Assembly: GCF_006345805.1 (NCBI RefSeq)
Contig: NC_042997.1
Coordinates: 124,496,001-124,560,000, forward strand
Source of the DNA: Octopus sinensis
Lineage: Eukaryota
Direction: 5' to 3'
Length of the DNA stretch: 64,000 nucleotides
Shown piece after piece: positions 25,255 through 51,845 of the stretch. The translations under genes and the position numbers were made by a program. A model generated the notes under the pieces. That model was not told where the DNA came from, made no database searches, and saw only the letters and a program-made list of their open reading frames with translations. Position 1 is the stretch's first letter, and every line of letters begins with the position of its first letter.

Positions 25255-25591
25255 TAGACTATATATTATTCATATAGAAATACACTAAGAGGCTTCCAAA
25301 TAGGAAAGCGTTGCGCTAGAAAGAGTAGTAGAAATCTCAAGACCACAAAAAAGGATAAATTCACGAAATGAATGAAAATTAAAAACGTTTACCATCTCAA
25401 CTATTTCCCAGACCGCGGTTTCTAACTATTTCCAGCAAAAAATATTCGCTAAAGGCCAGTTTTCTTCAGTGGGACAGCCTTTAGATTTCAGACATACAGA
25501 CCGCCAGAAATACACTACGAGGCTTCCAAATCGGAAAGCGTTGTGCTAGAAAGAGCAATTATGTATTTCTATATGAATAATATATAGTCTA
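25255..25591 (-). mobile_element. Hammerhead-bearing element with ~30-bp inverted ends and a ~50-bp internal direct repeat
   Basis: tagactatatattattcatatagaaataca pairs with tgtatttctatatgaataatatatagtcta. The direct repeat agaaatacacta.gaggcttccaaat.ggaaagcg occurs at ~25276 and ~25506. Confidence 0.75.
25405..25474 (-). ncRNA. Minimal type I hammerhead ribozyme motif with palindromic stem III
   Basis: Minus strand tccca CTGAAGA a-aact...agtt-a GAAAC cgcg GTC tggga: perfect 5-bp stem I, ACCGCGGT palindrome, GUC site. Confidence 0.8.
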
Positions 25592-26370
25592 ATGACTAAT
25601 TCGTTTTTTGTGCTAGGCCTCTGGTAATAATAATTTATCATTACCCTATTTTATTATGTTTAAATATTGTTTGATAAATTTGTTCGAAATTTTTACCGGC
25701 ATCCTCTCTATCGCCGGGTATAATCTGCGTCTGCGCAGTGGTTTGAAAAGTTAGGATTTACAAACCGTTAGTTCTACATGTGGATCCACCGGTGTTTGTA
25801 ATCGATGGTAACATGTGCGATGAATTTGCGATTATCTTCTATTTTACGGAGAAATTGGAAGCCCCGAATGTAAGCCAACACTTTATGCATAATTCAATAT
25901 TTATAGTTCTCTATTTCTAACTGAAATTCTGTCCTCAATAATTATAGATATCTATTTCAAAATGTAATTCTTGTTCTTCTCGTTCAGCTTATAACTATAA
26001 CACGCATTTTTGTCTAGCTTTTTTTCTCCAGCGTTCACCACTCCACCTCGTTAGGGTTAAACAGCCCTTACCGAATCTTTTCACTGTTTTTGTTAGCAGC
26101 TTTGACGTTCCACGTATCTCAAATTTTATTTAATTTGCTTTGGGAGAGCAATTACTTTGACGAAGACGCATCTCGTTGCAATGCTCGCAATGCGGAGTAG
26201 GTAAAACTGCCAACAATTGAGAAAGGTTTGTTTTTTTTATACTGCCTTCGCGCTATAGTTGTCTATATATAATTGAAATTCTCTTTCTTTCAAGCCAAGC
26301 CAAGCCAAGCCAAGCCAAGTCAAGCCAAGTCAAGCCAAGCCCTTTGTTACAGTGATACCAATGCCATAGC

Positions 26371-26790
26371 GGGCTCTGGTCGCCATAGCGTCGACTGTGG
26401 GCCGGTGGCTATGTACAGTCGCCTCGATATCGCCCAGAGCGAGCTCTGGTTGCCATAGCGTCGACTGTGGGCCGGTGGCTGTGTACAGTCACCTCGATGT
26501 CACCCAGAGCGAGCTCTGGTCGCCATAGCGTCGACTGTGGGCCGGTGGCTGTGTACAGTCGCCTCGATGTCGCCTAGAGCGAGCTCTGGTCGCCATAGCG
26601 TCGACTGTGGGCCGTGGCTGTGTACAGTCGCCTCGAGGTCGCCTAGAGCGAGCTCTGGTCGCCATAGCGTCGACTGTGGGCCGATGGCTGTGTACAGTCG
26701 CCTCGATGTCGCCTAGAGCGAGCTCTGGTCGCCATAGCGTCGACTATGGACCGGTGGCTGTGTACAGTCGCCTCGATGCCGCCCAGAGCG
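26371..26790. repeat. GC-rich 70-bp minisatellite, six units, preceded by (CAAGC)n
   Basis: g(a/g)gctctggt starts at 26371, 26441, 26511, 26581, ~26650 and ~26720. Confidence 0.92.
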
Positions 26791-27593
26791 AAGTTTGAAT
26801 GAAATTGGTTGTGTAGGTCTCAAGTTTTGGGGATTCACACAGACAAACACATTCTCAGTGTTATATATATAGATATATGTGTATGTATATACATATACAT
26901 ATACGTACTTATAAAAACACACACATGCATTGAATTGAATAGAATGAATTGTGAAGAGCACTCAATGCATATAGTAGGGTAATGTTTTATTGAAATTTAC
27001 ATTGTATCTCATTGATTTGAGTTTTATACCAGGGAGATCTTCAAGCGAGAACTCTTTCGGTTGTTTATACATTTTTGTCAACGTTGATGTGATCTCCTGC
27101 TTATGACTTTTCGGTTGTGTGCATTTTGTGTTTATGCCTGTTTGTTATTTTTCTGTGATTCAATTGTAATTTTTTTCTTCTAACGAGACATATTTTTAAC
27201 TTACTTATACATTCTACATTAATTATTGTATTGATGACCGTTTTTGTTAGAGCTTTTTGTTAGTTTTTCAATTGTTAGGGTATTTTCACAATGTTTCTGA
27301 GTTAGCTTCCCCAAAACAAATTATGTGTTCCGTTAGGAAATATTCTGTTGTGGTTCTCATTGCTTGTGTATATTTCAAAGGGAGCATGCTTTGGCAAGTT
27401 TCATTTTTGTGTGTATGTGTACAAGTGTACAGGTGGTTATGCACGAGTGATTGTTTTCTGACGTAAATACTGTTCATGTGTGTATCAAGTTGATTGGTTA
27501 TGGCTAGTATAGTAAGTCATGAACCTGTATGAAAATATATGCATGTATGAGTGTGTGTGTGCGCGCGTGTGTATGTATATATGTACTTACACA

Positions 27594-27787
27594 TACGAGT
27601 TCCTAAGCCTGGGTAGAAGAAAATGCAGGAAAATCAATTAATTTTTATTTTATTCAACATATTCACAAACTTATTTTAGCGGCCCTTTATTTTTTTTTAA
27701 GCCCTGTAAAAGAACTCGGGAAGTTGAACTGCCAATTAGGCCTTTCACGATAGCCTTCAACTTGGAATTTTACAGCACACCCTTGTA
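27594..27787. mobile_element. Degenerate mariner-like MITE
   Basis: tacgag.. left end and ggaattttacagcacacccttgta right end, both with TA. Confidence 0.35.
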
Positions 27788-28432
27788 TATGTATGTGTGT
27801 ACGAATATTATTATTTGTAAACAACGTGGAAAGGACGTGCACAACAAATGGCGTACGACATATTGTTTATTACTCTGAGCTTTCGCTACTTGACTCTCAC
27901 GCTTCATGAGCTTCAGGTGTCGATTTTTTTTAGACCTTTCAAACTAGATTTGGTATACAATAACTATTTTTGTGTGTAGCTATACTTTTTTTTTAGTGAG
28001 AATATTTCTTTTGTTTTTTTAGTCTTTTATTTATATTTTCATTTGTGTAATTAAGTATTTCATGCGAGAGAGATATAAAATGATAGTGGGGAGAATGAGT
28101 TTGTGTTTGCGTGAATCTGTATTTAATTTGTTTAATTTGAAAGGTAGAGTGTGAATGTTTCTAATTTACCGTTTCATTTTCCATATATTTCGACTCTTGT
28201 GTATATGTACGAATCATGTACAGCATACAACTGATGCATTAAAATGTTGCCGGCCTTTAACAATCAGACACTCCAGAAAAAAAAAACTATCTTATTCACT
28301 ATATAGGATTACTTATATAGGAATCATCCCTCGAACCAACACCAGCGGAATTGAACCCACACTTTACAAGGAACAACTGAGATGTTTAAGAAATATCATG
28401 CGCCCGTCTGACTCATGCAGAAACTCACAATC

Positions 28433-28463
<31 letters not shown>

Positions 28464-29176
28464 CACACACGTACATGTAACCAGATTACAATTTTAAAAA
28501 ATACACTACAAATTTGAGAGATTTATCTAATATGAAGATTCTTGTCAGCATCACAGACAATGACAGCAAGTTACTTGAACATCAATGACTACAACTTAAG
28601 GTCTGCTAGTGATATTCAAAATAAAATAAATTATTCACAAACCTTAATTACTTTCTCCTTAATTACTGAATGTATAACACGATCGTTTTATTAATGCTGG
28701 TAACTATCCAGCTTTATACATATTTCCTTTCACGTTTCTTAATTTCCAATCGACCTACGTTCCACTGCATGAAATTAATGTCCACAATCTCTTCTACTGT
28801 CCTCATAATTTCTGGTTGTAATTATTATTTCTGGTTTAATTATCATTACTTTAACATTAAAATTAATAAAATCATTGTCACTATTACAATTATTATCATT
28901 ATTATTATTATCATTATACTTTTATAACCATGATCAGATGTAGAATGATTTAGAATAGTATAAATCTAACTCAGTGTTTGGTTTAGCAAGTGCTTTTATC
29001 AATCCCATGAATATAGACGGAAGGTGGAACGCAGATCCATAGCTTTCGAACTCTGACCGTAAAAAACGGAACTAAATAATGCCAGGCCTTTTTTATTTTC
29101 TTCGATGCTCTCCCGATTCTCTCTAGTCATTGTTATGCAGTGTAAGAATGTTTTGCTCGTTTTCCCATTAATATAT

Positions 29177-29398
29177 ATTTCTTTATTGCCCACAAGGGGC
29201 TAAACATAGAGCGGACAAACAAAGACAGACAAAGGGATTACATCGACCCCAGTGCGTAATTGGTACTTTATTTATCGACTCCTAAAGGATGAAAGGCAAA
29301 GTAGTCCTCGGCGGAATTTGAACTCAGAACGTAACGGCAAATGAAATACTGCTAAGCATTTCGCCCAGCGCGCCAACGTTTCTGCCAGCTCGCCGCCA
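29177..29398 (-). mobile_element. SINE family B
   Basis: Homologous to 13694-13931; approximate TSD ttttcc..ttaatatat. Confidence 0.78.
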
Positions 29399-30528
29399 TT
29401 TTCCGTTAATATATTAGCCCAAGGAAGAAGGTATGCAATATATATCTTCTTCCTCAGCCATTCCAGATGAAAGTGTAGTAACCAATACACATCCTGAATA
29501 TTTACTGATCATTATATGTTCGAAAATATATGAGGTCATACCCCAAAGCGCATGCTTGCTACAGGGTGAACTAGTCTTAAGGCAACCACGGCTGAACGTC
29601 ACAAGATATTTGTCATCCGTTTTAATAGTTCTAGTAAACTACAATCATCCTTAAGCTCTGTAACATATTAATCATTGAATTGCCTTTTTTTTTGTTTTTG
29701 TTTTTTTGTTTTTTTTTTAGGTTTTTCTTTTGTTGGTGGTGGTTTTGGAAGGCAAAAAAAGAAAACGTAATAAATTCAAGCTCAGAATGTAAAGTGACTA
29801 AAGTGATGTAACTAAATGGCACAATTCATTTAGGCAAGCCGTCTACTGTATCTATTTGGGGACACAGCGAGTTTTGAAGTTATGGAAGCAGAAGCAAAAC
29901 GAAGATGAAACATGTATGCATACTGAACACTAATTCTCCAAGCCAGCACATGCAGAATCACTAATTCTCATTTCCAGCACATGCAGAATCGGTGCAAGAA
30001 TACCAGTGCAAGAAAACTGTAAAAGGTTGCATGTGCCGCCGCTTAATCATAACCAATGATAAAACGGTTATACACTACAACGGAAAAGAAGCGAACACAC
30101 AAAGAATAGTCCACGCTGTATGAAAAATCTCCGGGAACAACCAAACGCAACTATGAATGCACCAATGCCCCATGTCGGCATGTAGAAGCCGAATCAGTTT
30201 GCACGCACACACACAGCCACAATTTCTGTCTCAGGGTTCATAATCACAGTCCACATCATGGCCACATAATACCCTCAGCGATCTGTATATACTTGGGGCC
30301 GCGATTCGAATTTGTTTAGTAATCGAATGGAGTTTACGGCAACAGAAATAACAGCGAAGTATCGATATCTGTTGTTCTCGTTTACTTCCAGGGCGACCCG
30401 TTTCAGCTGGCTTTGAAGTATACTGTTTCTTTAACTTAAAGGGACCCCGTTCCTGGATGAAACAATATAACCTAAAAGCGTTTAACAACAGACATATTTT
30501 TCACGTGACATTGATATATATATATATA

Positions 30529-31031
30529 TAGCAACGAATTGCCTCACCAACACACCGAATTTAGAAATATAGCTATATCCCAGTAGATGACCGCAGCATT
30601 TTGTCTTGGCTACACGCGGGTGGAAGGGGGCTGGTGACACAAACTTTCATTCACACTTTGAATTTCGTGGTACTGGTCATGCTTTGGCTCGCTCTGACAC
30701 TGAGTTGAGATAATGCCTTCTAGTATCTCAAAATTTAATATACAATTATTCATAATTGTAGTATCCTGCGCCGATGAGAAAAGAAGTTTGGGTAAGGTAG
30801 AATTTTCTAATTCTTATGCTTTCCTAAAACTTGATTTCGAAACGTACGTCCGTAGGTAACTTAAAATTGTATGATAGATTGCCGTCATTTCATTCTTTCT
30901 TTCTTACCTGTCTGTGTTTGCCTTTCAAGTGCTGTGTTTTTACTGAGATCCCCCTTTTAGTAGAAGGAATAGCTATATCTCTTTGACTGCTATTTCTAAA
31001 TTCGGTGTGTTGGTGAGGCAATTCGTTGCTA
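30529..31031 (+). mobile_element. Hammerhead-bearing element with ~40-bp inverted ends between (TA)n tracts
   Basis: tagcaacgaattgcctcaccaacacaccgaatttagaaata is an exact mirror of the right end. Confidence 0.8.
30765..30856 (+). ncRNA. Minimal type I hammerhead ribozyme motif (CCGAUGA core variant, long stem II)
   Basis: cctgcg CCGATGA gaaa..aagttt..agaatt-ttct-aattct..aaactt..tttc GAAAC gtac GTC cgtagg: 6-bp stem I, ACGTACGT palindrome. Confidence 0.78.
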
Positions 31032-34000
31032 AACCCTTAATTACTTAGTATTACTTATATATATATATATATATATTGGGAGAAGAGGACAACACCTCTG
31101 TTTCCAAGATTTGACGATACCTTGCTATTCAAAAATAATATATATTGTGTATCACAAAATATTACTATATTATCAAAGGAACCAATAGGTTTGGCAATTA
31201 ATTATTCTCACCATTCTGAAGAAAAATGTATAACAACTAAATAATAAGATATCATATGAATTCAAAGACAAAGGGAGAGGCAATTATGCGTACGATTTTA
31301 TAAATATCGCTAATAAGCAAAAACTGTCACTTGAGTTTCTTTCACATCATGGTTAAGAATTTGAATGAAAGACAAAATGTTTATAATGAAATGATATTTG
31401 ATTTCTTGAAGAAAAAAAATATATAATCATCTCATTTGTATGTAGAGAGAAGCGAAATGTATTTCTAGTCAAATAGAACGGAAGTAAACTGTACAAGAAC
31501 TGTCAGTTTTTAAAGTACAGGGAATTATATTTTCTTGTAATGAAATTAGTTAATGGTGTCACATAACAAGTTCCTCTAAGAAACTCCCTAAAAGGTGATA
31601 GAGTAGTCCATTAATTATGGCGGCCATTTTAAGCAAATTTCTTTACAGTCGGAGAATTTTCTCAAAGTATTATCTTATTTTATTTTAGTTTTGTTTTTAT
31701 CTATGCCTAAACCTTTGTGCCTTCGGACTTTTCGTTCAAAAATTCATCAGAGAATTTTAAGTATGACAAATGAAATCGTATATTTAAAGTGAAAGAAGAC
31801 ACGAAGGTTTGAATTTGCAAATTCGAATTTCGATACAGAAGAAAATGTTTTTAAATTTTTAAAACCCAGAGCGTATAAGGTGAAAATAAATAGTTAATCA
31901 TAATTTCCAAAATTTAATTTCTTAGAAATCCCCAAAGTTCTTGAATCGCCTATAGAGAAGACGAAGCTTTCCAAAATGTGTAATATGAACTGAAGACAAA
32001 AATAAACGTTGCGATCATTGCAACATAAATTAGATCAAATATCGAATGTGACTCTCATATGTTGTCTGAAATGAACCTTTCTGAAGACTGCTTTAATGTT
32101 TTAATATTTTAGACTATTAACCTTTCAGAAAGCCATCTGTTAGATTTGTTTCATCCTGTGCTTCTATCTTACAGCGTGTCTGTTAATTACAGACATAAGC
32201 CATATATTCTGATGGTACCTATTCATGACTTTGATCTATGGAAGCAGCATCAGATCAAAGCCACAATTATTGACATTTCGGTGAACAGACTGATATTATC
32301 GTAATGCCACAATCAGTTACAAGAATCTAAGGTGCTAAGAAGTATATATTCGCTTGATGTAGCCTTTATGTGGTCATTCGATTAGATAGAAATAGTAGCC
32401 AAACCCCCTGTGTCATATATTTCTGATATTAATGATGGACAAATTTAAACAAATTTACAAATTAATAGGTATGTCATCTTTGGAACACTCTCTCTCCATT
32501 ATTAGTTTTTGTTATTGGTTCCCAGCGCTTTGTGCGATCGAAGTGTGTACTGTTATGACATTTGGTGTGGCTTGAGCATGCTAAAAAGTTAGAGTACATC
32601 TCTCTTTAGATCTGACCACAAGTGATTTCTTCAGGAAAGCCAGCAAGAGAAAGAAGCGATAGACGGGAGAAGAATCGACAACAGGCTGGACTATATTTCA
32701 ATTACGTTCCCGAAAGAGATGGAATACAAAGTTAACCTCAGGGTACAGAGAACTGGAATGAATACTGCAAGACACTCTAACAAACATTCCATCGCCTCTG
32801 CCAATTCGCTTCTTAAAAGTTACTTCTCTGTAGTACGATGTAACTTCTAAGGCCGTTTACATAAATTTCTTCAGTCAAGATCCACCTAGAGCTAAACCAT
32901 AACGGCGTATTTCCTGGAGAGCTGAATTCTTAGTCCGATAAGTAAACGGTTGAATTTCGATAAGGTAAAGGAAGTTGTGTCAGAGATGAAATAAATCGAC
33001 TTAGCTTTACCTACTTGATGATGGTTATTTCTAATACTAACAAAATGGGGAGGGGCTACTCTCAATTAATCAAACAGAGTACTCGACTATTGTTTATTTT
33101 AAGTATTCCTGAAGCATGAACGGAGGGAAAAAAAGACTTATCGACTCCGTTGGGATTTGAGTTCTGAACATGAAGAGACGCATCCACGTACGAAAAAGCA
33201 ATAACTCTGTCACTGCCGATTCTGTCGCACCACTAGTCATTAATAATATCATTATTTTTAATTGTTTGGAACCTTTACAACTTCATTTTATGAAGTAGTA
33301 GACTGAGATTGAGAAATTGGGTTGGCGTTGGACATAGAAAAACAAATTAAATAAGTGGTTTACGATATCTAGTCCACTATATCACTTTATCTAAATTTAG
33401 AATAGGTTAGGCTACATGCTCTTTCAGAAATTAAATGAGAAGAATCAGCGTCATACATTGAGAGACTTGTCTCCGTGTTTCAGTACATGGGTTGTAAGTG
33501 AACGATGTTCTTAACAAATCCCTGTGGAACATGAAAATAAATAAATCAACTTTTTGCTTCAAATAATGTTCATATCATAGCCTGTTTAACTGCGAAATTT
33601 CATTGTATTAAGTGATCTCTCATCTTCGCTTCCCTTTTAGCTTTACTGAATTTTACATTGTTTTGTAGCTTTTTTTGTTTTTGCCTTTTTATATTTGATC
33701 TGAACTTCGCCACATTTTATAAGACTGCTCTTATGGATACATTCTCTACATATATATTATACTAGCTTTAAATAAATATTAAATATATAGATGGACATTA
33801 AAAAAATATTCCAGACAAAATGAGTTCCTTTTTTAAAAGAAACGAAAATATATCTAGATCGATTCTTCTACGAGTAATTCAGTGCCAAAATTGGTGCCAA
33901 AATGATATTAATGTGTCTGCAATGCGAAGAAATAGAAAAATAAATTCCGTATTTTTTCTACCTTTTTGTAGTAAGTTTTTATTACCTCTAGACAATTTTG

Positions 34001-36046
34001 TTTCGCAGTGATGTTTACTTTATTACTACATAGTAACAACAACAACAACTATAATAATAATAATAATGTTTTCTTTGATAATAATGATAATAATTTCATT
34101 TATTTGCCACCAGGGCCCATTCATTCGTATAAAACTGTGTTACAAGATGGTTACAGAAAGCGTGGAGATGTACGCAATTATATAGAAGCCAGGTGGGGAC
34201 ATCAGACAATGTATACAGACGTATTAAAAGACCGATTCAAATAATTACAGATCAGATACCAAGAATAGACATATGTGCGTGTGTCTATGTGTGTATATAT
34301 GCATATATCTGCCTGAATATATATATACATTATATGTATATATCTAATGGAGTTGTACATATACCCATATAATATGTAACCGGAACATTACAACTCTATT
34401 CTCTCTCACTATCATACATTCTCTCTTTCTTCCCTCCTCTCTCCCTCCCTCTCTCCCCTCTCTCTCTCTCTGAAGTAGAAAAAGAGAACTTATATCACAC
34501 ACTACACCTCATACCAGACATTCTTTAACATATTGAAATAGATAGTAACTCATACCTCTTGTTGCCGCTTACAAAAAACACCGCGCAAAAGAAAAGAAAA
34601 AAGTTTGAGCGAGAGAAGGAGAGAACGTTTCGTTTCTCTGATGCAAGTGTATCGTCTGGGCTTTCTGTATCAGTGTCTAACAATATTTCTCATATGGAAG
34701 GCAAAATGATACTCTACCTTCCCAGCCGAATGCCACAGCGGGCCATCGACGTAGACACTGAAGTTTTACTGCGGCAGTAGTTCTTTCGCTCACCCCTAAA
34801 ATATTGAACAAAGTATCGCTTCAATGTTGCATACATCTACTTGCAATAGAGTTGTACTATTTTCTTTCCGACAAAGATGGAGCTTGGACTATATTCCTGC
34901 TGTACACCCCTTCCATTCAAGCTTTCGATTCAACGTGACTTCGAACATATACTGACTTCGAGCACATACTCTCATTCTGATGATGCAAACTTTAAATTTT
35001 TTATTGTAGAAATTGCTGAAAGCCAATTTCGTTGTTAGCTCGTTGGTAGTCAAGCATTTTCTAAACACTTCTTCTAATTTGTTCACTAGCGCCTTCTCCA
35101 AACTATTTTTTCTATTGTTACGTCTTTGCTAAATCCTATCGATTTTTCTCTAATCATTCTTGTTGCTTGCTCCGCCACTTGTTGATTGCTCCGCCAACTT
35201 CCGCGTTACTATTTCGTAACCCGGATACAGTAGTCATTTTACACCCATTTCGATGCGTTCTTCATCCAGTAACCTAGCCCTATCTGGGTTGACCGTGCAG
35301 AAAGCAAACTAGTGATCTGTGTAACCGACTGATTCGTCAATAAATGTGCAGTTAACATACTAGATCAATGACCCAATCTGGCTTATCTTTGTTCATACTG
35401 GAACATATGGCAAACTCAGTTGGTACATGTCATACAGTTGGAAGAGTTTAATCAGTAAATTCAACGCAATTCCAGTTTGCATCACAAATCCCAATCCAAT
35501 CTCAAGCTAGTACAAAAATCGGGGCTGTTCCCATGTAGGCTTTTAATCGCATAAAGAACTAATGCTACCTTTCCAACAATCGGAGCTTACATGACCATAT
35601 CTGCAGACAGCACATTTCTTGTCGTTCATATTTAGCACTACTGACTTATCGTCCAGATTCATAATACTCACATGACTTGGGAACAACTATGAAGTGAATC
35701 ATTGAGCAAAGATTTCAGGTCTCTATAAAAGAAGGGTATCCATCAGCATTATTAGATGACAGCAAATTATGCATATAGCTGTGGAGGTTGGGTGAGAGTA
35801 TCGTGTGGAAAATATCATGAGCTCCGATACAGACGGGCGTCTTAAGGTTACGGTGATTGCATTTAAAGCAGTCTTATTTTTAATCAGAAGAACTCGGCGT
35901 TTCTTCGTGATATACATGTACATGCATATGTATATATATATATGTATATGTTTTGACATATGAGTGTGTGTGTGTGCATATGTATGTTTATATGTATGTG
36001 TGTATTCACATGTATACATATATATGTATATGTATGTGTGTGTGTA

Positions 36047-36290
<244 letters not shown>

Positions 36291-40310: not shown

Positions 40311-41391
40311 ATCTTCAGTATTCAGTAGAAAGCATTCCTTCAGCTATCACACCGTAGAATGGATTCGAACCCTAAACCACATGACTACGAAGTAAATTTA
40401 ACTATTCCTGCATAATGTCTTTTTTATGTATTTATTTCTATCGGTCAAAAGTGATTCCGTTTTAAAAAAAATATGTTCGATATTTTCCAACACTTTTTGT
40501 CAATCAATTGAAATCTATAGCCCAAGGAAGCCATAATTGTACATCAAAGGGCACCATCGCCTTTCTCTCTGTCCATTCCTAAATGTTGCTCAACCATTTG
40601 CTTTTATGATCTTCCTATGCCTCTCCAACCGGGGATTTTCCATGCATGACTATATTCAATAGAGATCGGATGTCATGGTGTCAAATCACATGACTAAACT
40701 ACTTCATTTTACGCCTTTTAACAAATCACTGAAGAGTTTCGTGCTTAGCAGCTTTCCCAACATTTTTTCCTTAATACTCTCATCATTTCGCTGTTCTGTA
40801 CATAGAATCTCAGTATCTTTCATTTCAAAAGCATTTTCTATACAATCAATTAATTTCATTTTATTTTTTTTATTATTATTTCTTTAATTCATTTTTACGT
40901 TTGAAGATTAATCTACACGTATCAGTGTATAAGTTAATGTGTGCATGTGTCATATGTGAGAGGCTCATAGAATGCATACATAATTAAATATCTTTTTTTT
41001 TTCTTTACTTGACAGTTGAAATGAATCAACGGAGATGCTACTACGTGGTATTTGACGTCCAAATGATAGCAACAATTTTCGCTCAAATCTCACTTTACCA
41101 TTTAAAAGAAGTTACAGATGCAGCGTTTCTGAAAATAAGATGGAATAGTCAAGGCTGGAACAACTTTTGGTTATACATCTCTGCTCAATCAAATGTGATA
41201 AAAGCCAAAAATGGATTCTTCACCTCTATTGAATATAATTATAAATTAAATATTAACCAAAATATGTATTGTAATGATGTTGTCTGAAAATATAGGACAG
41301 ACCAGCACAGGATTGTTCTTTTTCTGACAGGATTGTTCTCCTTCTACGCATATTCTGCATTATAAATATTACTAAAAAAATACATATTTAC

Positions 41392-41585
41392 CTTGTGAAG
41401 AAGGCGCCGGTAAGCTGACGTTGATGACATCACGACGACTATATTACGAGTGGCTCCCTCTAGTTGATCGAGCTGTCGTAACATTTTATGTGTGTTTTCT
41501 ATGTCATCAACACGACGTACCACAACCTCAAGTGGGTCTGACGAATTATTGAAAGAGTCGTAGATATGTTGAAGATGAATTAAAC
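41392..41585 (-). CDS. GRIA: AMPA-like glutamate receptor ATD exon B
   Basis: Acceptor ctattctcag|GT, donor AAG|gtaaat; 194 nt, phase 1 to 0. Translates (G)LIHLQHIYDSFNNSSDPLEVVVRRVDDIENTHKMLRQLDQLEGATRNIVVVMSSTSAYRRLLHK, in frame with exon A. Absent from the ORF track. Confidence 0.9.
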
Positions 41586-41649
41586 CTGAGAATAGATAAC
41601 AACAGAAAAATTATATTTAAAATATTACCAGCAGTAACAAAAGAGATAA

Positions 41650-42380
41650 TGAAATATTTAAAAGTATTCCAAATTCAAGAAATCCCAAAATTAGATGAAT
41701 TAAGAACAAATGCAGAAAAGAACTAAATACATGAAAATCCTAACTAAAAATGCACTCTTAAATAATCTTACCATCAAATGGCAGGAAAATTACTTCATGG
41801 TAAATATCCAGAGAGATTTAACAATTCTGAAGTTGATAAAACTGTTACCCATCAGTGGTTAGCATCCTCTGGCTTAAAATTACAGATATATGTTTAAAAA
41901 AACACATCCTCAATCCATCGAGCATACCGTCTGTAGTTAAGGCTTTATACCCTCAGAATATTTCAAAAGGCATGATAAAGCTGCGCAATATATCGACTGG
42001 TTTAATTTACAAGTACCGGAACGTGCCCCTTCATAGATGATTACCTCAATTACCAGGAAATCCAAAAGTGGAAGAAACTCAGAAGATAGTACTTTTGGAC
42101 TCCACTTAAATCTTACGAAAAATAATACTATTTATATAACTTCAAAACAATCTTTTTACACATATCAAAAGCGCAATTTCTAAAACAATACCTCTTACGA
42201 ACCCAAAGTGGACAATTATAGCACAAATCCTGCCCAACTACATTCTTCACCCACAACATGACCGTTATCAACTATCATAGTCATAATGACAACTGGAAAT
42301 TATAACATGGTGTCTCTTGAGGTTTCTGGGTGAGACATGGATTCACTCATACAAACACGAAGTCAAGTCCAACATCACAA
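41650..42380 (+). mobile_element. Second R4/Dong-like LINE remnant
   Basis: Fragments LHGKYPE..VDKTVTHQWLASSGLK, EYFKRHDK and GNPKVEETQKIVLL..ILRK. Confidence 0.6.
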
Positions 42381-43420
42381 TACTAATTCTTTCTACTATA
42401 CGCACAAGGCCTGAAAGTTTGTGGAGAGGATGTTAGTCGGTTACAGCGGCGATCCCATTGTTTAAAAGGTATTTATTCCTTCGACCTTGAAAGTATGAAA
42501 GTCAAAGGTGACCTCGGCGGAAATAGTAATTCTTTATTTTTTTCCCCTAAATCTCATTCATTCACAGAAAAAGAATGTTAGGATTTTACAAATCCGTTGG
42601 AGTAAACAAAATGGATAAGATAAAAATGAAATGGAAAGCAAAGACGTTATAAAATATACAGACATTAACAAAATTATTCAAAATTAATAAGTGATTATAT
42701 GAGAATATGGATGTAATTTAAAGAAACAAGAAAACAATGGGATAGCCGAGCATCACACGGGTGAGAAACCAGGAACTAGTGTTGGTCAGATTATCCCATA
42801 TCCTTATTCTCCTGTCACTGCAAAATGCGCATGAGCATTTCCAATGTAGAGCAGGACTAAAAGCATTCAACGGCATTTCTGATATGACAGACCGTTGATG
42901 TCAATTATATGGCAGACCGTTGATGTAATCTTCAACTACATTTTATCATTTGACTATCTCACTCCTCCTTCCCACACATCACATCATCAACATTACTCTA
43001 CAAAACACACGCCCTTTGGTGCCAATACCACGTTACTTCCTTTCAAAACTTAAAAAAAACTTCCATTTTGTGAAGAGCGTTCTTCATATCATTTACACGT
43101 CTTTTGCTTTGATTCATTGGTTTGCTTTTGACTTGGTTATATGTTTAATGTCGCCGAAATATTTTCAAACCTGTCTATCCTCTACACGCCTCTCATCGTC
43201 ATCAAATGACAGGGTAATATTTCTGGAAGAGAGGAACACTCTGTTCTTCTCTGGTTGTTTGTAGCGGAGTCAGCTTCCTGATAAGATTACATGTTGTCGT
43301 TTCTTGGGAACTGTGGCGGGCCGAGTCTTTTTGCTATCTCCACAGTTGCGGCCGGTAGTGTTTTCTAAATAATGGATTCTACGTTTGATGCTTATTGATT
43401 ATTCACCTTGCTTCCTCTCT

Positions 43421-43530
<110 letters not shown>

Positions 43531-44975
43531 CACGGACGCACACAAACACACACAAACACTCTTTCACTCTCGCTCTTCTCCCTTTCATTCCCAGCTCCTG
43601 AGAACAGAATACCCACAAGTGTCTCTTCTTTCCCTTATATAACAGATGGATCTATTGATTTAAGGATCATAATGGACTGCCAGATCAGTGCCACAATAGT
43701 TAAGGCGAGCCAAGGGTCAATGCTTAACCCGATGTGCTACATTTTAACGCTTTATTGCTTTTTACCCATATATCGCGGCACGATCCTGTGGGCAGGTGTG
43801 TAGAAACATTAACTAAGCTTGTCAACTCACCACATCTTCAGTTTCGAAGACCAGGCAATCAATCTTGTATATCCTACCTTTGTATATGAAAATTACATCA
43901 TCCAACACAAGATCTACGTCTACCCTTCATTGCATTTTGACGGTACTCTATAAAGTCATTTGCTTTCCAAGTGACGGATGTACACCGTCTTTCGAAATGC
44001 ATACCACTTTTCTTTTTTAACTTGCTTCGATAAAATCGGTAGCGCAAGAGAGCAGAATTTCTTGTGATATAAATCTGTTTCAGTCTTTCTTTGTCAGAAA
44101 AACGCCCCTTATTCATAATTTCTTTTTAGCTTGTTGACATTAACAAAGCTGTTTTCGTCATTGTCTGCGATGCGAAAATTATTCGACTGCTACTAACGTC
44201 AGTCTCTATATTACACATTTGTTTCCTTGTGTTTGTCTGTAATTTCTGAGATGGCAATGTCTGCGCTGTGTTTGTAATTGCACCTGTTCGTTTAAATGTT
44301 ACAATTCGTTTCTTTGTTTGTCACTTTTTAAAACAGACTCTGTTTATAGCTTCATAATTTTCATCAATGTTTTTCTCTCGGAAAACTTCGGAGGCGCGAT
44401 CGTTGTTACCTCTTTTCTTGGTATCAACGCTCATCGTTATTTCAAACGGAGAAGCGATATTTTTTTTTTAATCCATATAAATAAATATTTTGTACAGCAA
44501 ATAAATGTTTGAAAGAGAAATAGTTTTGTCTACAGTGAATCAACAGCACAGACATTTGAAAGTTCCAGAAGCTCGCTGTTTCTATAAAAACCCGGAAAAG
44601 AAAAGCTTTCTTTCTCCCACTAAATAAAATTTGGACTCATTCGCTAAGAGTGAAGTAGGTTCGATATCATCTAAAGCGAAAAAGAAGAAGAAGAAGAAGA
44701 AGAAGAAGAAGAAGAAGAAGAAGAAGGGGAGGAGGAGGAGGGGAAGGAGGAAGAGCATGGGAAGGAGCAGGAGGAGGGGAGGGGAGGGGCAGGAGGAGGA
44801 AATGAGGAGGACGAGGAGGAGGACGATGAGAAGGAGGAGTAGGGGAAGAGGCAAAGAAGAAGAAGACGAAGAAGGAGAAGGAGAAGAAGAAGGAGAAGGA
44901 GAAGAAGAAGAAGAAGAAGAAGGAGAAGAAGGAGAAGGAGAAGAAGGAGAAGAAGAAGAAGAAGAAGAATAAGAA

Positions 44976-45006
<31 letters not shown>

Positions 45007-46004
45007 AAGAAGAAGAAGAAGAAGAAGAAGAAGAAAAGAAGAAGAAGAAGATTTACGCCGTTGTCGTTCACCCTTTCAAAAATACAGCTAAAATTTTGCT
45101 CAATTCATATTCAAACGTCAGCAAATAAAATGAAGCATTACAAAATTTCGTACTAAATTCACCGAAGAACCGGAGACATGGCTAGAATGTTGTCGATAAT
45201 ATATCTTGGTGATAAGGGCTGTCTTTGTACTAAAATGACAGCATAAACAACAGTAATTTGAACACTGAACTGGAAAGACAACTAATATCAAAGCAACGTT
45301 TGTTAAAACAACCAGTACAAACTGTAATTAATGAACTAGAGAGATTGTTGAAACTTAAGAAGATAAGGAACTAATTCAAAAATAATTGGAACACCTTACT
45401 AATAAGACAAGAGCCTTACGTTACAATCAAAGTTATCTGTCTGCAGTAAATAAAAGAATCTAGTGTCAATAATTCCAAGTGAAGAACGAATTATCAAAGC
45501 AAGTATTGTGTATGGATTTATCTTGTGTCTCTTATCTTGTACCATAAGCTATTGTTTGTTTCTGAGGTTGCCGACGCTGTCATCATTGTTGCTTTTTGGT
45601 GTCGTTGTTTAACTGCAGATCAGTTTCTCTTGGTCAGAAATGGGATCGCCGGCATTTCACCTTTATGAACCTGTCTTTTGTTCTGGGCATTGTAGTGTAC
45701 ACTAGATAACATTAACTAATCTATCCTCATTTAAGAAGTCGATGGAAACGCCGCCGCTATATACGTCAGTTTAACAAAGACAATGGCTTGAAGTTCCTCT
45801 TTTTAACTTATATTTCTAGAACTAAAGTTATCTTTACACACACACGCACATATACACACATACACAATTTTGTCTTCTGGTAACTGATGTAATATGTATA
45901 TATATATGCATAAATGTGAGTGAGTGTGTGTGTGCGTGGTACATATAATTATAGATATATGCAGGTATGTACATATGTATACGTTTTAGTGTGTGAGTGG
46001 CTGT

Positions 46005-46392
46005 GTGGCTGTGTGGTAAGTAGCTTGCTTTCTAACCATATGGTTCCGGGTTCAGTTCCACTGCGTGGCACTTTGGGCAAGTGTCTTCTACTATAGCTTC
46101 GGGCCGACCAAAGCCTTGTGAGTGGATTTGGTAGACGGAAACTGAAAGAAACCCTCGTATATATGTATATGTATATATATGTTTGTGTGTGTTTGCATGT
46201 CTGAGTTTGTCCCCCCAATATCGCTAGACAACCGATGCTAGTGTGTTTACGTCCCCGTAACTTAGCAGTTCGGCAAAAGAGACCGATAGAATAAGTACTA
46301 GGCTTACAAAGTCCTTTGGCGATTTGCTCGACTAAAGGCCGTGCTCCAGCAAGATCGCAGTCAAATGACTGAAGCAAGTAAAATAGTAAAAG
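46005..46392 (+). mobile_element. SINE family A
   Basis: tggctgtgtggtaag..gggttcagttcc head, central microsatellite and conserved 3' body. Confidence 0.82.
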
Positions 46393-47229
46393 ACTTTATG
46401 TATGTGTTTTTGAGCGAGTATGCGTAATAGATATATACATGTGTGTTTGTGTGTGTGTCTGTGTGTGTTTTCAAAACTATCAGCGCCAAGCATTGATTAG
46501 GAATACGCGAAATTTAAGTTAGAGAAAATATATTTGTGGCATATTTCAACTTTTAAAGGCAAATTCACTGCAGCTGCTATGGAGAAATATATTCTCTCTT
46601 ATGATAAAAGGTGTAAAAACATTAAATGTGCCCAGTGTTGGCCTCTATTGGATTCTAGGACGCAGCGTTTCTGTCACTTTAAGCATTCCTCAGTTGAAAA
46701 TAACGAACAGTGGTGACTCTAAGAAGATGTAAAACCGTAGCTTTAACTAAAACACAGTCCACACACACACACACATCGGCGACTAGACATCAATATCACA
46801 ATGAATTAGACTCCGTAAAAACTACCTACGAATTACGCGGGGATTGTTAAGTAGGGTAACAGATTAAGTCGCTTATTAGCAACAGTTCACACTCTTACAG
46901 GCTTGCAATAGCTTCCTTTAATTATACTGGAAAAACGTTGGTCGACAGAAAACTGAAGATAACCTCCATGATATTGTATGGATAAATTATATCTGAATGA
47001 TCTACCTAACTGTCAAGCGAACATCTTAACTATATATTAATATTTGTGAACTTTCCTTACCTACTCAACAATTCCTACACCGTGTTCTTAACCACGTGAC
47101 CATACAGTATATTCTTGGTCTTGTGTTGCATTTGTTTGCTTCACAGTAGATTGTTTTGGAAGTAATTTAATCTTTACACATATCAGAGTTCTTTAAATTT
47201 AATATTCTCCCACTTTTCATAAAGTAAAT

Positions 47230-47820
47230 AGAATTAGTTCGTTAGATTTTACTTTTGACTCAAATAAATTCTGTTATTTTCCACTAGAAAAAGTAACCCT
47301 TATTTTTATCTCAACGGCTTTCACTTACCTTTGACTTGACTAATCTTTCTTTTGCTCAGGAATTCACAACTTAACTTTATCTTTGATTCAGCAATCTTCC
47401 CTATCTTTCACTCAACAACCTTTCCTTAAGTTTCATTAAGCCAATACCCGTTAAATTTCACTCAACAAATTCCCCTTAAAGTTATCATAACAATCTTCAC
47501 TTGACTTTGATTCAACAACTTTCTGTTATCTTCGATTCGGTAATCCTCCACTGCTCCTTATCTCATACTGAACAACCTTTCCTTCATCTTTACTAAACAA
47601 ATAGCCATTTACTTTTCCATCAACACACTCCCCTTTTATTTGACTCAATAAATTCAATTCTTATCTCTAATTCAAATACCCCTTATCTCCGATTCAATAT
47701 CTTCGCCTTACCTTTGACCTAACATTCAGACCCTTTTGGCTTAACAGCTTTCAGTTCTCTTTGACAGAGCAAACTGCCGTTAGCATTGACACAATAACCT
47801 TCTCTTAACGTTAACTTAAC
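47230..47820. repeat. Highly degenerate ~25-bp tandem repeat
   Basis: Recurring tta(t/c)cttt(g/c)a(c/t)tcaacaa...ttcc-like units. Confidence 0.5.
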
Positions 47821-48754
47821 AACAAACAAAATCAATCAATGTATCTCAATCGTCTTGTGATCATGAAATTGTCGATATTTCACATTTCTTTAAAAAGAAA
47901 TTAAAATCGGTACATATTTAACTAAGAGAGATTGTAAATAAGAGAAAAAGGCAAAACAAAGTAAAAACGAATCCTTTAATCTCCAAAAGATTATTTTATG
48001 GCGCTTAATGAAACAGAAAACTAAAAGACGAACTTTATGCAAAGGAATTAACACATTAATTATTCACCACAGATGTAGAGTTAAATGATCTTATAATTAT
48101 ACATAAACATATGTATACATGTATACATATATCCATGTATACATATATCCATGTATACATATATACAAACATACATAGTAATGCATACATGCATACATAT
48201 ATATATATATATACATACATGCATACGTGCATGCAGACATACATACAAAACTACATGCATACACACATACATACATATATATATACATATATACATGCAT
48301 ACATACATACATACATACATTCATGCATACAAACATATATACATACATGCAGACATATAAGCATACATACATAATACATACATACATGCATTCATATATA
48401 CATACCCACATATACATACATGCATACATTCATGTATACATACATACATACATACATACATACATACATACATACATACATACATACATACATACATTGG
48501 CTACAACCCAATTTCGATTAGTACCATGGTTTGATTGTTCGCTTAAATATGACCAGAATGGACGTGGTTTTTCAATTCTGCTAGGGATTTACACTGTTTT
48601 GTACTGATATAGCTATGTTGGGTGCATCTTGCAATAAGTCTTAACAAATTGTTTTCCTGACGTTCACCTCTACATTACATTCGCTCTACTTTTTAAAACA
48701 TATTCTTTTCTATAACCACTGCAATTAGAGATGCAGTACAACACATAGTTAACA

Positions 48755-49055
48755 GGCGTGGCTGTGTGGTAAGAAGTTTGCATTCACATGGTCCGGGTTC
48801 AGTCCTACTAGGTAGCACCTTGGGCTAGTGTCATCAACTATAGCCTCGGAGGACCAAATCCTCGTGAATGGATTTGGCAGACGGAAACTGAACGAAATTT
48901 GTCATGTGTCACCTCTTGACACCGGTGTGGATGTGTTTATGTTCCTGTAATTTAGTGGTTCCTCAATGGAGTACGATAGAATAAAAAGAAGTGAGTCAGT
49001 TCATTTATTCGACTCAAATTTTTTCAAGGCGGTCAAATGACTGAAAAAGTGAAAG
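48755..49055 (+). mobile_element. SINE family A, diverged
   Basis: ggcgtggctgtgtggtaagaag head and a partial body. Confidence 0.7.
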
Positions 49056-49284
49056 CTAAATAAATACTCTGTCTGCGTGGCTCCTCAGATGACTTCTAAG
49101 GTCTGCCTTACCTAGACAGACACCTAGACACACACGTAAAACGTTAAAATAGATCGTGCCCCTAAAAACACAAGGAAGTTCACTTACTTACATATATACA
49201 TGCGAGTAGTGTAAATAACTGAGCGTGTGTATATGTGTACTGTAGTTAGGTGTGTAGTAAAGAATATATAACGTGAAGTGTGTT

Positions 49285-49437
49285 TGTGTGATAAGAAACT
49301 CGCTTCCAAATCACATCGTCCTGAGTTCAGTCCCATTGCGTGGCACTTTGGGCAAGTGTCTTCTACTATAGCCTCAGGTTGACCAAAGCCCTGTGAGTGG
49401 ATTTAGTAAACAGAAACTGAAAGAAGCCCGTCGTATA

Positions 49438-49500
<63 letters not shown>

Positions 49501-49748
49501 TATATATACGTATATGTGTGTGTATATGTTTGTGTGCCTGCGTTTGCCCCCCCCCCCCCTCAACATCGCTTGACAACCGATGCTGGTGTGTTTACGTCCC
49601 CGTAACTTATCGGTTCGGCAAAAGAGACCGATAGAATAAGTACTAAGCTTACAAAGAATAAGTCCTGGGGTCGTGTTGCTCGACCAAAGGCGGTGCTCCA
49701 GCATGGCCACAGTCAAATGACGGAAACAAGAAAAAGAGTAAAAGAGTA
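49285..49748 (+). mobile_element. SINE family A abutting the exon A splice donor
   Basis: The family A body ends aaaagagtaaaagagta immediately before acttac (the donor read on the minus strand). Confidence 0.82.
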
Positions 49749-49754
49749 ACTTAC

Positions 49755-50003
49755 CATCATCTGAATCGAAAATGTAGAAAATTCGCCTCCACCGATAGAA
49801 GTTGATCAGCTCTGTGATGGCTGGCATATAGGACGGGCTCATATGTATCTCAAATGGATAACTTGGCAGTTGATGTCTTGTAGCTACATTCAGAACGAAT
49901 ACGGGTAGATGCAAAGCATTACTATATGCTTGAACAACATGATGGGAAATTGGGTTGTTTAGTATAAAAAGTGCGAAAATACCCATAGCCGACTGAGAGC
50001 AAA
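49755..50003 (-). CDS. GRIA: AMPA-like ionotropic glutamate receptor, ATD exon A (first exon seen in window)
   Basis: Acceptor ctctttccag|TT, donor GATG|gtaagt; 249 nt, phase 1 to 1. Translates xCSQSAMGIFALFILNNPISHHVVQAYSNALHLPVF...INFYRWRRIFYIFDSDD(G), resembling the AMPA ATD 'CSQ.S.GV.AIF' and 'Y.W..F.Y.YD.D.G' segments. Confidence 0.92.
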
Positions 50004-50164
50004 CTGGAAAGAGAATTAAAATAGAGAAATTAGATTAATACAGGGAAATAATTTATATTATGAATGTATACATCAATAAACATTTCAAATTTCTCTGCAA
50101 TATAAAAATGTGCTGTAATGTAAAGATAAATACATATATACATACATATATATATATCCTTATG

Positions 50165-50539
50165 GTCCACAAGGTCTACACATAGAGGGGACAAACAAGG
50201 ACCAGCAACTGCGTAAGTGGTGCTTATTTAAACGACCCCGAAAGAATGAAAGGCAAAGTCAACCTCGGTGGAATTTGAACTCAGAACGTAACGGCAGAAG
50301 AAATATCTATTTCTTTACTGCCCACAAGGGGCTACACACAGAGGGGACAAACAAGGACAGACAAACGAATTAAGTCGATTATATCGAACCCAATGCGTAG
50401 CTGGTATTTATTTAATCGACCCCGAAAATATGAAAGGCAAAGTCGACCATGGCAGAATTTGAACTCAGAACGTAGCGGCAGACGAAATACCGCTAAGCAT
50501 TTCGCCCAGCCTGCTAACTATTCTGACAGCTCGCCGCCC
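50165..50539 (-). mobile_element. Two adjacent or nested SINE family B copies
   Basis: Homology to 13694-13931. Confidence 0.75.
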
Positions 50540-51346
50540 TTAAAGAAGAATGTAAATAGGCACGAGTATTACTGAGTGAGTAAAAAGCTTCGAGATCGGT
50601 TCTGCTGAGCGGTACCGTGGGCAAGTGTTTGTTATTATAACCTCTGGCCGACAAACGTCTTACATTCTAATTTGATAGACGGAAACTGTGTAGAAATCCG
50701 TATATAAATAAATATATGTTTTATTTGTGTTTTCCCCCACCGAGAGGTGTTGGTTTGTTTACATGTCTGTAACTTTGGGATTCGGCAAAAGAAACTAGTA
50801 ACTTAAATGCCAGATTTTAGAAAAAGCACAAATTGCTTAAATCTCCGTTTGTGCCAAAATAATGTAATTCATTAGTAAAGCTAGTGACACATCTACTGAC
50901 CAACTAACATTTTCACCAATCTATTTTGTTTCGTAAACCCTTAAAAAAAATACAAGCCTAAGACCTGCAGCTGACACACCAAAACGAACACACCTGATTA
51001 GAAATTCTACTTGTATGACTGAATTCTGAACATTAAAATAATTCCAAATTTAATCAATAAAATCTTCCATCACCACCAACCCTAAAACTTAATTAACAAT
51101 GAACAGTGCTCCACTTACCCCAGAAAATTTTAATTTAGCAGAAACTATATAAAGCCAAGATGAACTCGAACGTAACGGTAACTGCTTATGGTTCAGCGAG
51201 CCGAAACTTCGAAGTTACAATCGATAATATTCTTGCTAAAGAATAATAAATAAGTACCAAAAGTACTGAGTAATCTTTCAGTTTAAGGTATAATATTCTA
51301 TCATAACTTGACATAAAAAAAAATCGTTAATGTCTGTTTGAATGTA

Positions 51347-51845
51347 CAGTAATCCCTCGACATATCGCGGTTCATTTATCGCGGTTCACCTATCGCGGTT
51401 TATTAATTAAGGTTACGTCGATTCCTCCGTGGTGTTGTTTTGCATTTATAATAAAATGAATATACACAAATTATAAAAATAAAATAAATATAAGCAATAA
51501 TAAATCTCTGAGCGAGGTATAAACCGCAGCTGCACAACATTGTGAAGTATATTTGCCACATAAATGTGGCTAACCACTAAGGTTGGATGCTACTGTAGCT
51601 TGTATATCCAGGAGGACACCTCATCCAGCTGGCTATTGACACACTTTCTGTGCCCTATCAGTATTTTCAAAGGGAACCCATCTTTCCCATGGTCAACCTG
51701 TATGATACACACGGACTCGAGTTTCTGGGCATTGACCCGTCATCAGCGTATATATATACAGTACAGTGCTGTTTCTACTTCGCGGACTTTCTCCTCTTGC
51801 GGGTTTTTTGGGAAAGTCGCACCAGCGATAGTCAAGGGATTACTC
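51347..51845. mobile_element. Tigger/pogo-like MITE with a nested hammerhead element
   Basis: Terminal inverted repeats (TIRs) cagtaatccctcgacatatcgc / gcgatagtcaagggattactc, flanked by TA. Confidence 0.7.
51707..51753 (-). ncRNA. Minimal type I hammerhead ribozyme motif with palindromic stem III
   Basis: Minus strand atatacg CTGATGA c-gggt-caat-gccc-a GAAAC tcga GTC cgtgtgt: 7-bp stem I with G-U pairs, ACTCGAGT palindrome. Confidence 0.8.

Follow-up and report, generated by a model that had tools for sequence, protein, structure and literature searches.

Type I hammerhead motifs with self-complementary helix III in several unrelated repeat families of an Octopus sinensis genomic window

Hammerhead motifs in the window

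The window, a 64-kb stretch of Octopus sinensis DNA analysed here as a whole, carries on its minus strand a host gene exon that matches Pfam ANF_receptor (approximate ends 49750-50003) and a second exon of the same gene near 1858-1966 (-), so that motifs lying between the two are intronic. RVT_1 has one match in the window (24795-25253), which looks like part of a LINE.

Scanning for a hammerhead core together with its stems, we found 10 type I motifs, whereas 200 local dinucleotide shuffles gave a mean of 0.06 and a maximum of 1, and never a motif whose helix III has 8 nt. Six of the motifs have a helix III of this length: it is a perfect Watson-Crick palindrome in three (families F, G and H), self-complementary via G-U pairs in both arms of family C, and without self-complementarity at its centre in the last, a member of family H at 2519-2559. 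The core elements CUGANGA, GAAA and UH occur in order and exactly in F, H, the 2519 copy of H (H'), C and B; G and I carry the U4C change (CCGA), a natural variant already known. Helix I has 4-9 bp and forms the open end, helix II has 3-5 bp or more, and helix III consists of 2 bp and a loop. An earlier note on this DNA had placed five words between GAA and the cleavage base, and all five do lie there in type I hammerheads; its coordinates fall near the starts of the motifs and are not the positions of the words.

No motif in the window reaches the gathering score of Rfam RF00163 Hammerhead_1 (34 bits), G scoring 18.1 and H 15.6 bits and F giving no hammerhead match, and this, like the presence of 20 perfect AC-NNNN-GT palindromes in the window, would speak for chance matches in repeat-rich DNA. 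Since the Rfam model fixes the size of helix II, a low score reduces membership in the Rfam family and not likeness to a hammerhead. Ten motifs against 0.06 per shuffle, their location in discrete insertions, and a core region of H that is quieter than the remainder of its unit all argue against chance, which we consider exceedingly improbable. An Rfam scan of the whole window to E 1 returned 148 matches and no hammerhead; those matches are artefacts, nearly all microsatellites or hairpins fitting microRNA models. The scan motif was absent from the inverted repeats at 8044-8204, 17994-18297, 20721-21560, 60879-61467 and 63100-63833, and the ACGATTGT at 21383 lies outside any hammerhead. Cores, stems and self-complementary helix III are present as such in the DNA, and self-cleavage is predicted from them.

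Three families with perfect palindromes

Family F occupies an insertion at 25255-25591 (-) that contains a 50-nt direct repeat (25276-25325 and 25506-25555, 94%, period 230) and a perfect 30-nt inverted copy of its tail (25255-25284 and 25562-25591). Its hammerhead (25406-25474, minus strand), identified by the scan for stems and core, has a helix I of 5 bp, the core CTGAAGA and a helix II of 40 nt with one extra A on either side of its base. The helix III word, ACCGCGGT, is a perfect 8-nt palindrome at 25412-25419 (-). F is present as a single copy in the window, and no RNA run was among those listed when 24200-26200 was used in a sequencing-run search.

Family G, also single in the window, is an insertion at 30529-31031 (+) placed after a TA run and bounded by a perfect 41-nt terminal inverted repeat. 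The scan located its hammerhead at 30765-30856 (+), with a helix I of 6 bp, the core CCGATGA (U4C), the pair G10.1-C11.1 and a helix II of 61 nt; the word, ACGTACGT at 30842-30849 (+), is again a perfect 8-nt palindrome. An 11-nt direct repeat with a period of 400 is weak evidence of a unit, because it is nearly palindromic itself and continues the terminal inverted repeat.

Family H is represented by a hammerhead found by the scan at 51705-51755 (-), whose word, ACTCGAGT, is a perfect 8-nt palindrome at 51715-51722 (-). The core reads CTGATGA, with an extra C after A9 and an extra A before G12, and helix II has 4 bp and a tetraloop. This copy of the element (51484-51749, minus strand) is cut just upstream of the core and sits inside a MITE-like element. 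Both arms of a fold-back at 2177-2727 are also family H copies: the plus arm keeps the hammerhead H' (2519-2559), with ACCAGGGT as its helix III, and the minus arm has lost helix II-III through deletion. In the 2519 copy, both partners of helix III pair 3 differ, C-G standing in place of U-A, and beyond a helix I of about 6 bp come an internal loop and another stem, with which the loose ends of H agree. Sequence similarity between F, G and H does not exceed that of shuffles, so the earlier description of three unrelated families with distinct perfect 8-bp palindromes is borne out; the words, all in helix III, start at 25412, 30842 and 51715.

Family H is a very high-copy element, with 6203, 5317, 3283 and 2565 contigs in four sequencing runs of DNA type or without a label; its pattern had 0 matches when searched in metagenome contigs. 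Its variants number 66 rows, and of the 40 listed, 36 lie within 51492-51702 and none in 51703-51749. The H word looks like the majority form across the four runs, judged on these 40 of the 66 rows, the kinds of variant able to alter the palindrome belonging to the other 26. Retention of the palindrome in the family consensus, as the earlier note supposed, seems likely for H; F and G are single in the window.

The H contigs contain many strand-switch joints. A head-to-tail class of joint, which goes back 258, occurs in three of the four runs (1-2 contigs each), and by eye the sequence past the 3' end apparently re-enters, after no more than about 32 nt, the region upstream of the core. H is probably a head-to-tail unit of about 290 nt, a closure read from loose-end consensuses with 0.6-0.7 agreement, compared by eye, and from joints in 1-2 contigs per run.

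Related motifs in fold-backs

The two near-palindromes reported earlier are present. Family C forms a fold-back (8302-8616) whose two arms hold mirror hammerheads at 8402-8444 (-) and 8472-8514 (+); its helix III, ACGATTGT, is self-complementary with two G-U pairs, the plus-strand word lying at 8502-8509. In the family I fold-back (58535-58697, both arms), the hammerhead at 58628-58665 (+) has the core CCGACGA (U4C) and a 9-nt helix III, ACTCCGAGT, at 58652-58660, and the mirror arm has the identical word at 58572.

Two further families were absent from the earlier list. Family B is a 128-nt fold-back in three minus-strand copies (4807-4934, 5165-5292 and 6668-6795), with hammerheads found by the scan at 4824-4874, 5182-5232 and 6685-6735 (-); its 16-nt, near-palindromic helix III is stable as a monomer (4 bp, -2.1 kcal/mol). 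Family D, a fold-back with two arms at 12965-13433, has a decayed hammerhead near 13232-13291 (+) with an extra U after A9, a broken helix I and a 7-nt helix III, ACT(G/C)AGT, whose centre is unlike between the arms. An extra nucleotide after A9 is found in H, F, D and B and is lacking in G and I; C is readable either way. In the fold-backs H', C, I and B, the hammerhead cores lie in paired sequence, their mean unpaired probability being at most 0.01.

Partners for dimer formation are scarce in the window. F and G are single, H has no intact same-strand partner of its family nearby, H and H' being 49 kb apart on opposite strands, and same-strand copies occur only in B, each locked in a hairpin. 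The window copies, solitary or locked in fold-backs, are probably inactive relics.

Pairing between helix III words

Because AC...GT is fixed or nearly so by the core, information resides only in the central 4 nt of a word. The chance of a palindrome is then 1/16 per word and 2.4e-4 for three out of three. As had been proposed, the helices III of two identical copies can form an 8-bp duplex: the calculated energy is -11 to -15.5 kcal/mol for the homodimer and +1.2 to +2.2 kcal/mol for the 2-bp monomer hairpin. Cross duplexes of F, G and H in register come to about 0 kcal/mol. H with I gives -8.3 kcal/mol and I with itself -9.2 kcal/mol, H and I being unrelated, and the helix III of the 2519 copy gives -7.2 kcal/mol with F and -4.1 kcal/mol with H. 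Among F, G, H, C, I and B, a helix I of at least 4 bp can form in just 3 of the 30 ordered pairs between families. G with H has 4 bp in both directions, and since helix I is compatible there, helix III alone discriminates, as the earlier note proposed.

Discussion

We think it quite probable that the words are the helix III of ordinary type I hammerheads on several unrelated short, high-copy retroelements, with selection acting on the palindrome and family specificity following as a side effect. In published work, two copies carried by the same transcript can exchange strands and so form a double hammerhead whose helix III is long. Both strands would come from identical copies, so helix III would extend only if it is self-complementary, and selection would consequently maintain a palindrome rather than one particular word. 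Lineages could then drift among the 16 AC-NNNN-GT words through paired changes, with family specificity arising as a by-product held in common with helix I, which also pairs across copies.

The earlier note had gone further, proposing a self-recognition code in which each family is selected for an unshared word and cleavage takes place only between homologous copies. In register, the words of F, G and H do not fit one another (about 0 kcal/mol, the own-word duplexes reaching -11 to -15.5 kcal/mol), which agrees with such a code, as do the apparent conservation of the H word over thousands of contigs in four runs, the separation of G from H by helix III only, and the paired change at pair 3 in the 2519 copy. 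Distinct words, however, are the neutral expectation, with probabilities of 0.82 for three and 0.67 for four words drawn at random from 16, and a selected code for each family finds poor support in them. Other observations also speak against a code: H with I pairs nearly as well as I with itself, ACT...AGT is common to D, H and I, and in metagenomes the H word is found again at 24 of 121 pattern loci with valid stems (mean of 0.8 in shuffles), these loci forming 4 clusters unrelated to H in other genomes (the stems being weak and G-U-rich in one cluster of 3). By our own count from Fig. S3 of Cervera 2014 (PMC4209133), 29 of 56 published families use ACGU and the word is shared internally in 8 of 11 multi-family species. 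Helix I must pair across copies as well, and cross-family copies would rarely lie near each other on one transcript, which would leave no clear selective pressure. We hold a selected code to be very unlikely, and just as unlikely that H is a very abundant circular-RNA element of about 290 nt gated by mutually exclusive family palindromes as a means of kin recognition. Titles and abstracts in an incomplete literature collection gave nothing specific on a self-recognition code for hammerheads or Penelope, and the supplements of PMC4209133 and PMC8557442, in the parts searched, contain none of the three words.

With a helix III of 2 bp and a tetraloop, the motifs would be capable of acting as dimers and not necessarily restricted to doing so; cleavage in dimers only appears doubtful, since invertebrate hammerheads with a helix III of similar length often act as monomers, although published results for this length are mixed. 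A possible account, to which we give somewhat less than even weight, is that monomers do most of the cleaving, as in the retrozyme hammerheads of corals and mussels, and that the palindromic loop just adds a faster dimer route in tandems. The canonical dimensions of H (helix II of 4 bp; helix I of about 6 bp, continued in the 2519 copy by an internal loop and another stem) fit this account, as does the stability of the B helix III on its own. Coral and mussel retrozyme copies cleave co-transcriptionally at about 0.8 and 0.1 per min, a helix III of 2 bp and a tetraloop has been termed "similar to invertebrate HHRs", and a review describes efficient monomer cleavage for most invertebrate type I motifs. 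On the other hand, the pair probability of the monomer helix III is at most 0.03 in nearest-neighbour models, which ignore the core and tertiary contacts, and an axolotl motif with 2 bp and a tetraloop cleaves only 22% in an hour as a monomer, its dimer doing much better. The long helix II of F and G and the U4C change of G and I, which reduces activity in vitro, also speak against efficient monomers. Cleavage mainly by monomers overlaps with our preferred reading of ordinary, palindrome-bearing hammerheads, the difference being the weight given to the dimer.

As to the elements themselves, we give a little better than even weight to H (about 290 nt) and F (230 nt) being retrozyme-like, non-autonomous units moved by Penelope-type machinery, and rank this above their being full Penelope element ends. 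The repeats could instead derive from autonomous Penelope-like elements, as pseudo-LTR pieces from their 3' ends, a reading that we find quite plausible but somewhat short of even. Inverted, 5'-truncated copies and (TA)n targets have been described for Penelope-like elements, and the window copies, 5'-cut, inverted or in partial tandem and adjacent to TA, fit that description; resemblance to Penelope variants extends to the additional nucleotide that follows A9 in H, F, D and B, and to the long helix II of F and G. Weighing against Penelope ends are the 3' flank of H, which by eye seems to lead back within some 32 nt to sequence upstream of the core, and, in our reading of Fig. S3 (PMC4209133), an 8-nt helix III in 0 of 56 Penelope-type motifs. 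A Penelope protein match is also absent from the window: a Pfam scan of its 439 reading frames of at least 45 aa gave no Penelope RT or GIY-YIG, an absence that says little on the source elements when it concerns frames beside cut copies. The F and H units fold no better than shuffles (z -0.4 and +0.4), unlike typical retrozyme circles, and the 400-nt interior of G adopts a rod fold (z -3.3), all three values coming from individual decayed copies folded as linear RNA. Any connection with an autonomous element is suggested by architecture only.

These repeats add several hammerhead families, one of them very abundant, to a known class, and they offer naturally occurring helix III words, matched and mismatched, with which monomers, homodimers and heterodimers could be compared. 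A selected code, if true, would give selfish RNAs a new means of distinguishing kin from competitors and would offer a ready set of orthogonal dimer-gated ribozymes; present evidence favours a by-product.

Comparison with known systems

Neither the dimer mechanism nor the use of differing palindromes is new here, both having been published. The Rfam Hammerhead_1 consensus draws helix III as an 8-nt palindrome. In Cervera 2014 (PMC4209133) the canonical helix III is a palindromic loop closed by 1-2 bp, with the consensus "GAAAN Palind NUH", and different or shared palindromes are reported among families of one genome. The window motifs depart from RF00163 in the extra nucleotides that flank helix II in H and F, the long helix II of F and G, and the U4C of G and I.

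With Penelope-like element hammerheads (PMC4209133) they have in common a palindromic helix III that differs among families, the dimer model, the extra nucleotide after A9 (in H, F, D and B), inverted 5'-truncated copies and mostly solitary motifs; in the window, no RT or GIY-YIG ORF is attached. The label "minimal" used in the earlier note is wrong for them: published Penelope min-HHRs mostly lack a helix III or have one of about 4 nt (mostly 4 nt in Fig. S3, PMC4209133), whereas the window motifs have a longer one of canonical size, 8-9 nt in F, G, H, C and I, 7 in D and 16 in B. Lunse, Weinberg and Breaker 2017 is cited in a review as a further source on Penelope-like hammerhead variants.

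Also close are the metazoan type I hammerheads and non-LTR retrozymes (Cervera and de la Pena 2020, PMC7229834), which agree with the window motifs in their type I topology, in a palindromic helix III of 8 nt and in short, low-GC units with one hammerhead. The periods of F (230 nt) and H (about 290 nt) fall inside the published retrozyme range of 150-450 bp, and a helix II of 4 bp and a helix I of about 6 bp in H match as well; unlike those retrozymes, the window copies are dispersed, cut and inverted, without long tandem arrays. Amphibian motifs are described with a weaker helix III than invertebrate ones, and dimer dependence in the window is a prediction. The likeness to the double hammerhead of newt satellite DNA and avocado sunblotch viroid (Forster et al. 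1988, as described in reviews) is that two tandem copies would lengthen a weak helix III via its self-complementary loop.

Hammerhead motifs and their helix III words

Scanning the window for the hammerhead core with helices I and II, with 200 local dinucleotide shuffles as control, we found 10 motifs against a shuffle mean of 0.06. They fall into short repeat families named F, G, H (two copies), C (two mirror arms), I and B (three copies); a further family, D, is a decayed hammerhead recovered with one mismatch allowed. The five helix III words that an earlier note had described, in F (25406-25474, minus strand), G (30765-30856, plus), H (51705-51755, minus), C (8402-8444, minus, and 8472-8514, plus) and I (58628-58665, plus), are all present, each in a type I hammerhead, where it separates the GAA from the cleavage base, and the positions quoted in that note are roughly motif starts. 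Three of the six motifs with an 8-nt helix III are perfect palindromes, two are self-complementary through G-U pairs and one is not self-complementary. With AC...GT taken as set by the core, the chance of perfect palindromic centres in three out of three is 2.4e-4. The observation of palindromic words is real. F, G and H are indeed unrelated: among 28 element pairs aligned locally, only H and its copy at 2519 show clear kinship (score 275), C against G scores 30, where the shuffles reach at most 29; every remaining pair, those among F, G and H included, lies inside the shuffle range. To call these hammerheads minimal is a misnomer, as their 8-nt palindromic helix III is that of the Rfam Hammerhead_1 consensus; G (18.1 bits) and H (15.6 bits) score below the cut-off of 34, and no match came up for F. 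The core change U4C, perhaps a family trait and perhaps decay, occurs in two unrelated families, G and I (both I arms). In the D fold-back, an insertion with two inverted arms (12965-13433), the only difference between the arms is the central base of the 7-nt helix III word, G versus C; the two words are reverse complements, pairing with each other at -9.4 versus -5.6 and -3.0 with themselves.

Genomic setting and carrier elements

The window is eukaryotic (about 35% GC, many microsatellites), has a repeat content resembling that of an octopus genome, and holds a GC-rich satellite at 26364-26791 (unit 70 bp, 6.1 copies, 94% matches). Exons near 49750-50003 and 1858-1966, both on the minus strand, match the Pfam domain ANF_receptor, which places the motifs between them in introns. 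F, B and one C arm are in sense orientation relative to this gene's pre-mRNA, and an active copy could therefore cut it.

Every motif lies within a short insertion. In the F insertion there is a direct repeat of 50 nt, with period 230, and a 30-nt inverted tail. The G insertion is bounded, by repeat comparison, by a terminal inverted repeat of 41 nt and has an interior of 400 nt that folding predicts to be rod-like. Adjoining the F insertion is a broken reverse transcriptase piece (24459-25253, minus strand; Pfam RVT_1, E 2.4e-5, below cut-off), presumably LINE-like. The H copy is nested in a MITE-like element (51345-51850) with ends that are inverted repeats beginning with TA, which we take to be Tc1/mariner-like; its right part (51754-51800) is very high-copy in all four public runs used below. 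A derivative of family I is present as two tandem 193-bp copies at 54590-55024; the core has been lost from both, and what remains is the helix III region with its flank, as a small hairpin. The B hairpin is triplicated within 4600-6859 by recent local duplications (~99% identical, spacings 358 and 1860 bp), or the triplication could be an assembly artefact instead. No hammerhead was detectable in the inverted-repeat insertions at 8044-8204, 17994-18297, 20721-21560, 60879-61467 and 63100-63833.

Family H in public sequence runs

Contigs from the four runs were aligned to 51480-51830 at 80% likeness, with 6203, 5317, 3283 and 2565 matching. Family H is plainly very large; in one run (X1) the depth summed over its core is ~2-3e5, a sum that is not a copy number, and single listed contigs there have 33-68. 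Among the best 40 of 66 variant rows, each reaching at least 14.5% in some run, 36 fall in 51492-51702, the neighbouring element accounts for 4, and 51703-51786 holds none; the kinds among the other 26, which from the table probably lie below 14.5%, include changes of a sort that would touch the palindrome. Under an even spread, the chance that 0 of the 36 fall in 47 of 258 nt is near 7e-4 (hand calculation). This suggests that the H ribozyme was retained as the family expanded, and alignment bias could contribute. For H, the one family compared in this way, the word appears to be the majority form: the listed rows leave the core untouched. The copy at 2519 carries ACCAGGGT, in which one pair has changed and the centre no longer pairs.

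In three of the four runs, 1-2 contigs each show a joint that returns 258 nt. Compared by eye, the loose ends past the 3' end look like the stretch preceding the core in the other H arms of the window, a likeness by which the H unit would close at ~290 nt. The F and H unit sizes match those of non-LTR retrozymes, for which PMC7229834 proposes movement by Penelope machinery. Alternatively, these repeats may be ends of Penelope-like elements themselves, since many of the insertions are 5'-cut, inverted or adjoin TA runs, the pattern described in PMC8557442; against this, none of the 439 reading frames of the window matches a Penelope protein in Pfam. Because the F and H units fold no better than shuffled sequence, we lean only slightly towards retrozyme-like units, and hold Penelope ends to be a somewhat doubtful reading.

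Pairing between copies

In a monomer, the 2-bp helix III hairpin is computed at +1.2 to +2.2 kcal/mol, and the word paired with an identical copy at -15.5 (F), -11.2 (G) and -12.1 (H) kcal/mol. Such pairing is the arrangement of the double hammerhead, in which, according to reviews (PMC6765202), helix III forms between two copies. As both strands would come from identical copies, helix III should be extendable only by a self-complementary word, which would account for the palindrome without any code. The capacity of these motifs to form dimers is, as a prediction, well founded. Whether dimers are needed differs among published cases: PMC7761336 describes efficient monomer cleavage for most invertebrate type I hammerheads, and PMC7229834 gives ~0.8 per min for coral and ~0.1 per min for mussel copies, and for an axolotl motif of 2 bp and a tetraloop 22% cleaved in an hour alone and far better cleavage as a dimer. 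The window copies themselves are probably relics, because no intact partner on the same strand exists in the window for F, G or H, the core bases of the fold-back copies are paired in computed folds, and the U4C change of G and I is reported to reduce in vitro activity (PMC3088659).

The earlier note had read the palindromes as a self-recognition code, each family being selected to keep its own word. Helix I of a double hammerhead would, by topology, likewise form across copies, and cross-family helices I of at least 4 bp arise in only 3 of 30 ordered pairs (F, G, H, C, I and B), so helix I by itself would shut out most mixed dimers. The exception in favour of a code is G with H, compatible in helix I, where exclusion falls to helix III. 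However, three different words out of 16 are expected with probability 0.82, and the code leaks: H pairs with I at -8.3, versus -9.2 for I with itself, and for the 2519 copy F (-7.2) is a stronger partner than H (-4.1). Words are also reused. A metagenome scan for the core with the H word gave at least 121 loci; 24 of the 121 listed have valid stems (shuffled mean 0.8), and these form, among the matches listed, four clusters (18, 3, 2 and 1) unrelated to H, though in other genomes, so that this is reuse and not coexistence. By our own count of Fig. S3 of Cervera 2014 (PMC4209133), ACGU occurs in 29 of 56 families, and in 8 of the 11 species with more than one family, families have a word in common. 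We accordingly consider it very improbable that the words form a selected recognition code. The largest metagenome cluster (18 loci among the matches listed) consists of members of one dispersed repeat family, in the DNA of other organisms, and two identical hammerhead stretches on one 1275-bp contig form a tandem unit.

Comparison with known hammerheads

In the titles and abstracts covered, an incomplete sample of the literature, we did not find the self-recognition idea stated. Palindromic stem III character across ribozymes appears in a supplementary figure legend of PMC3088659, and in the figure of Cervera 2014 two Aedes families have one word in common, a third family using a different one. 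PMC4209133 describes helix III as palindromic and as varying from family to family, and also covers cleavage as dimers; the kind of motif is already known, and the window supplies further members.
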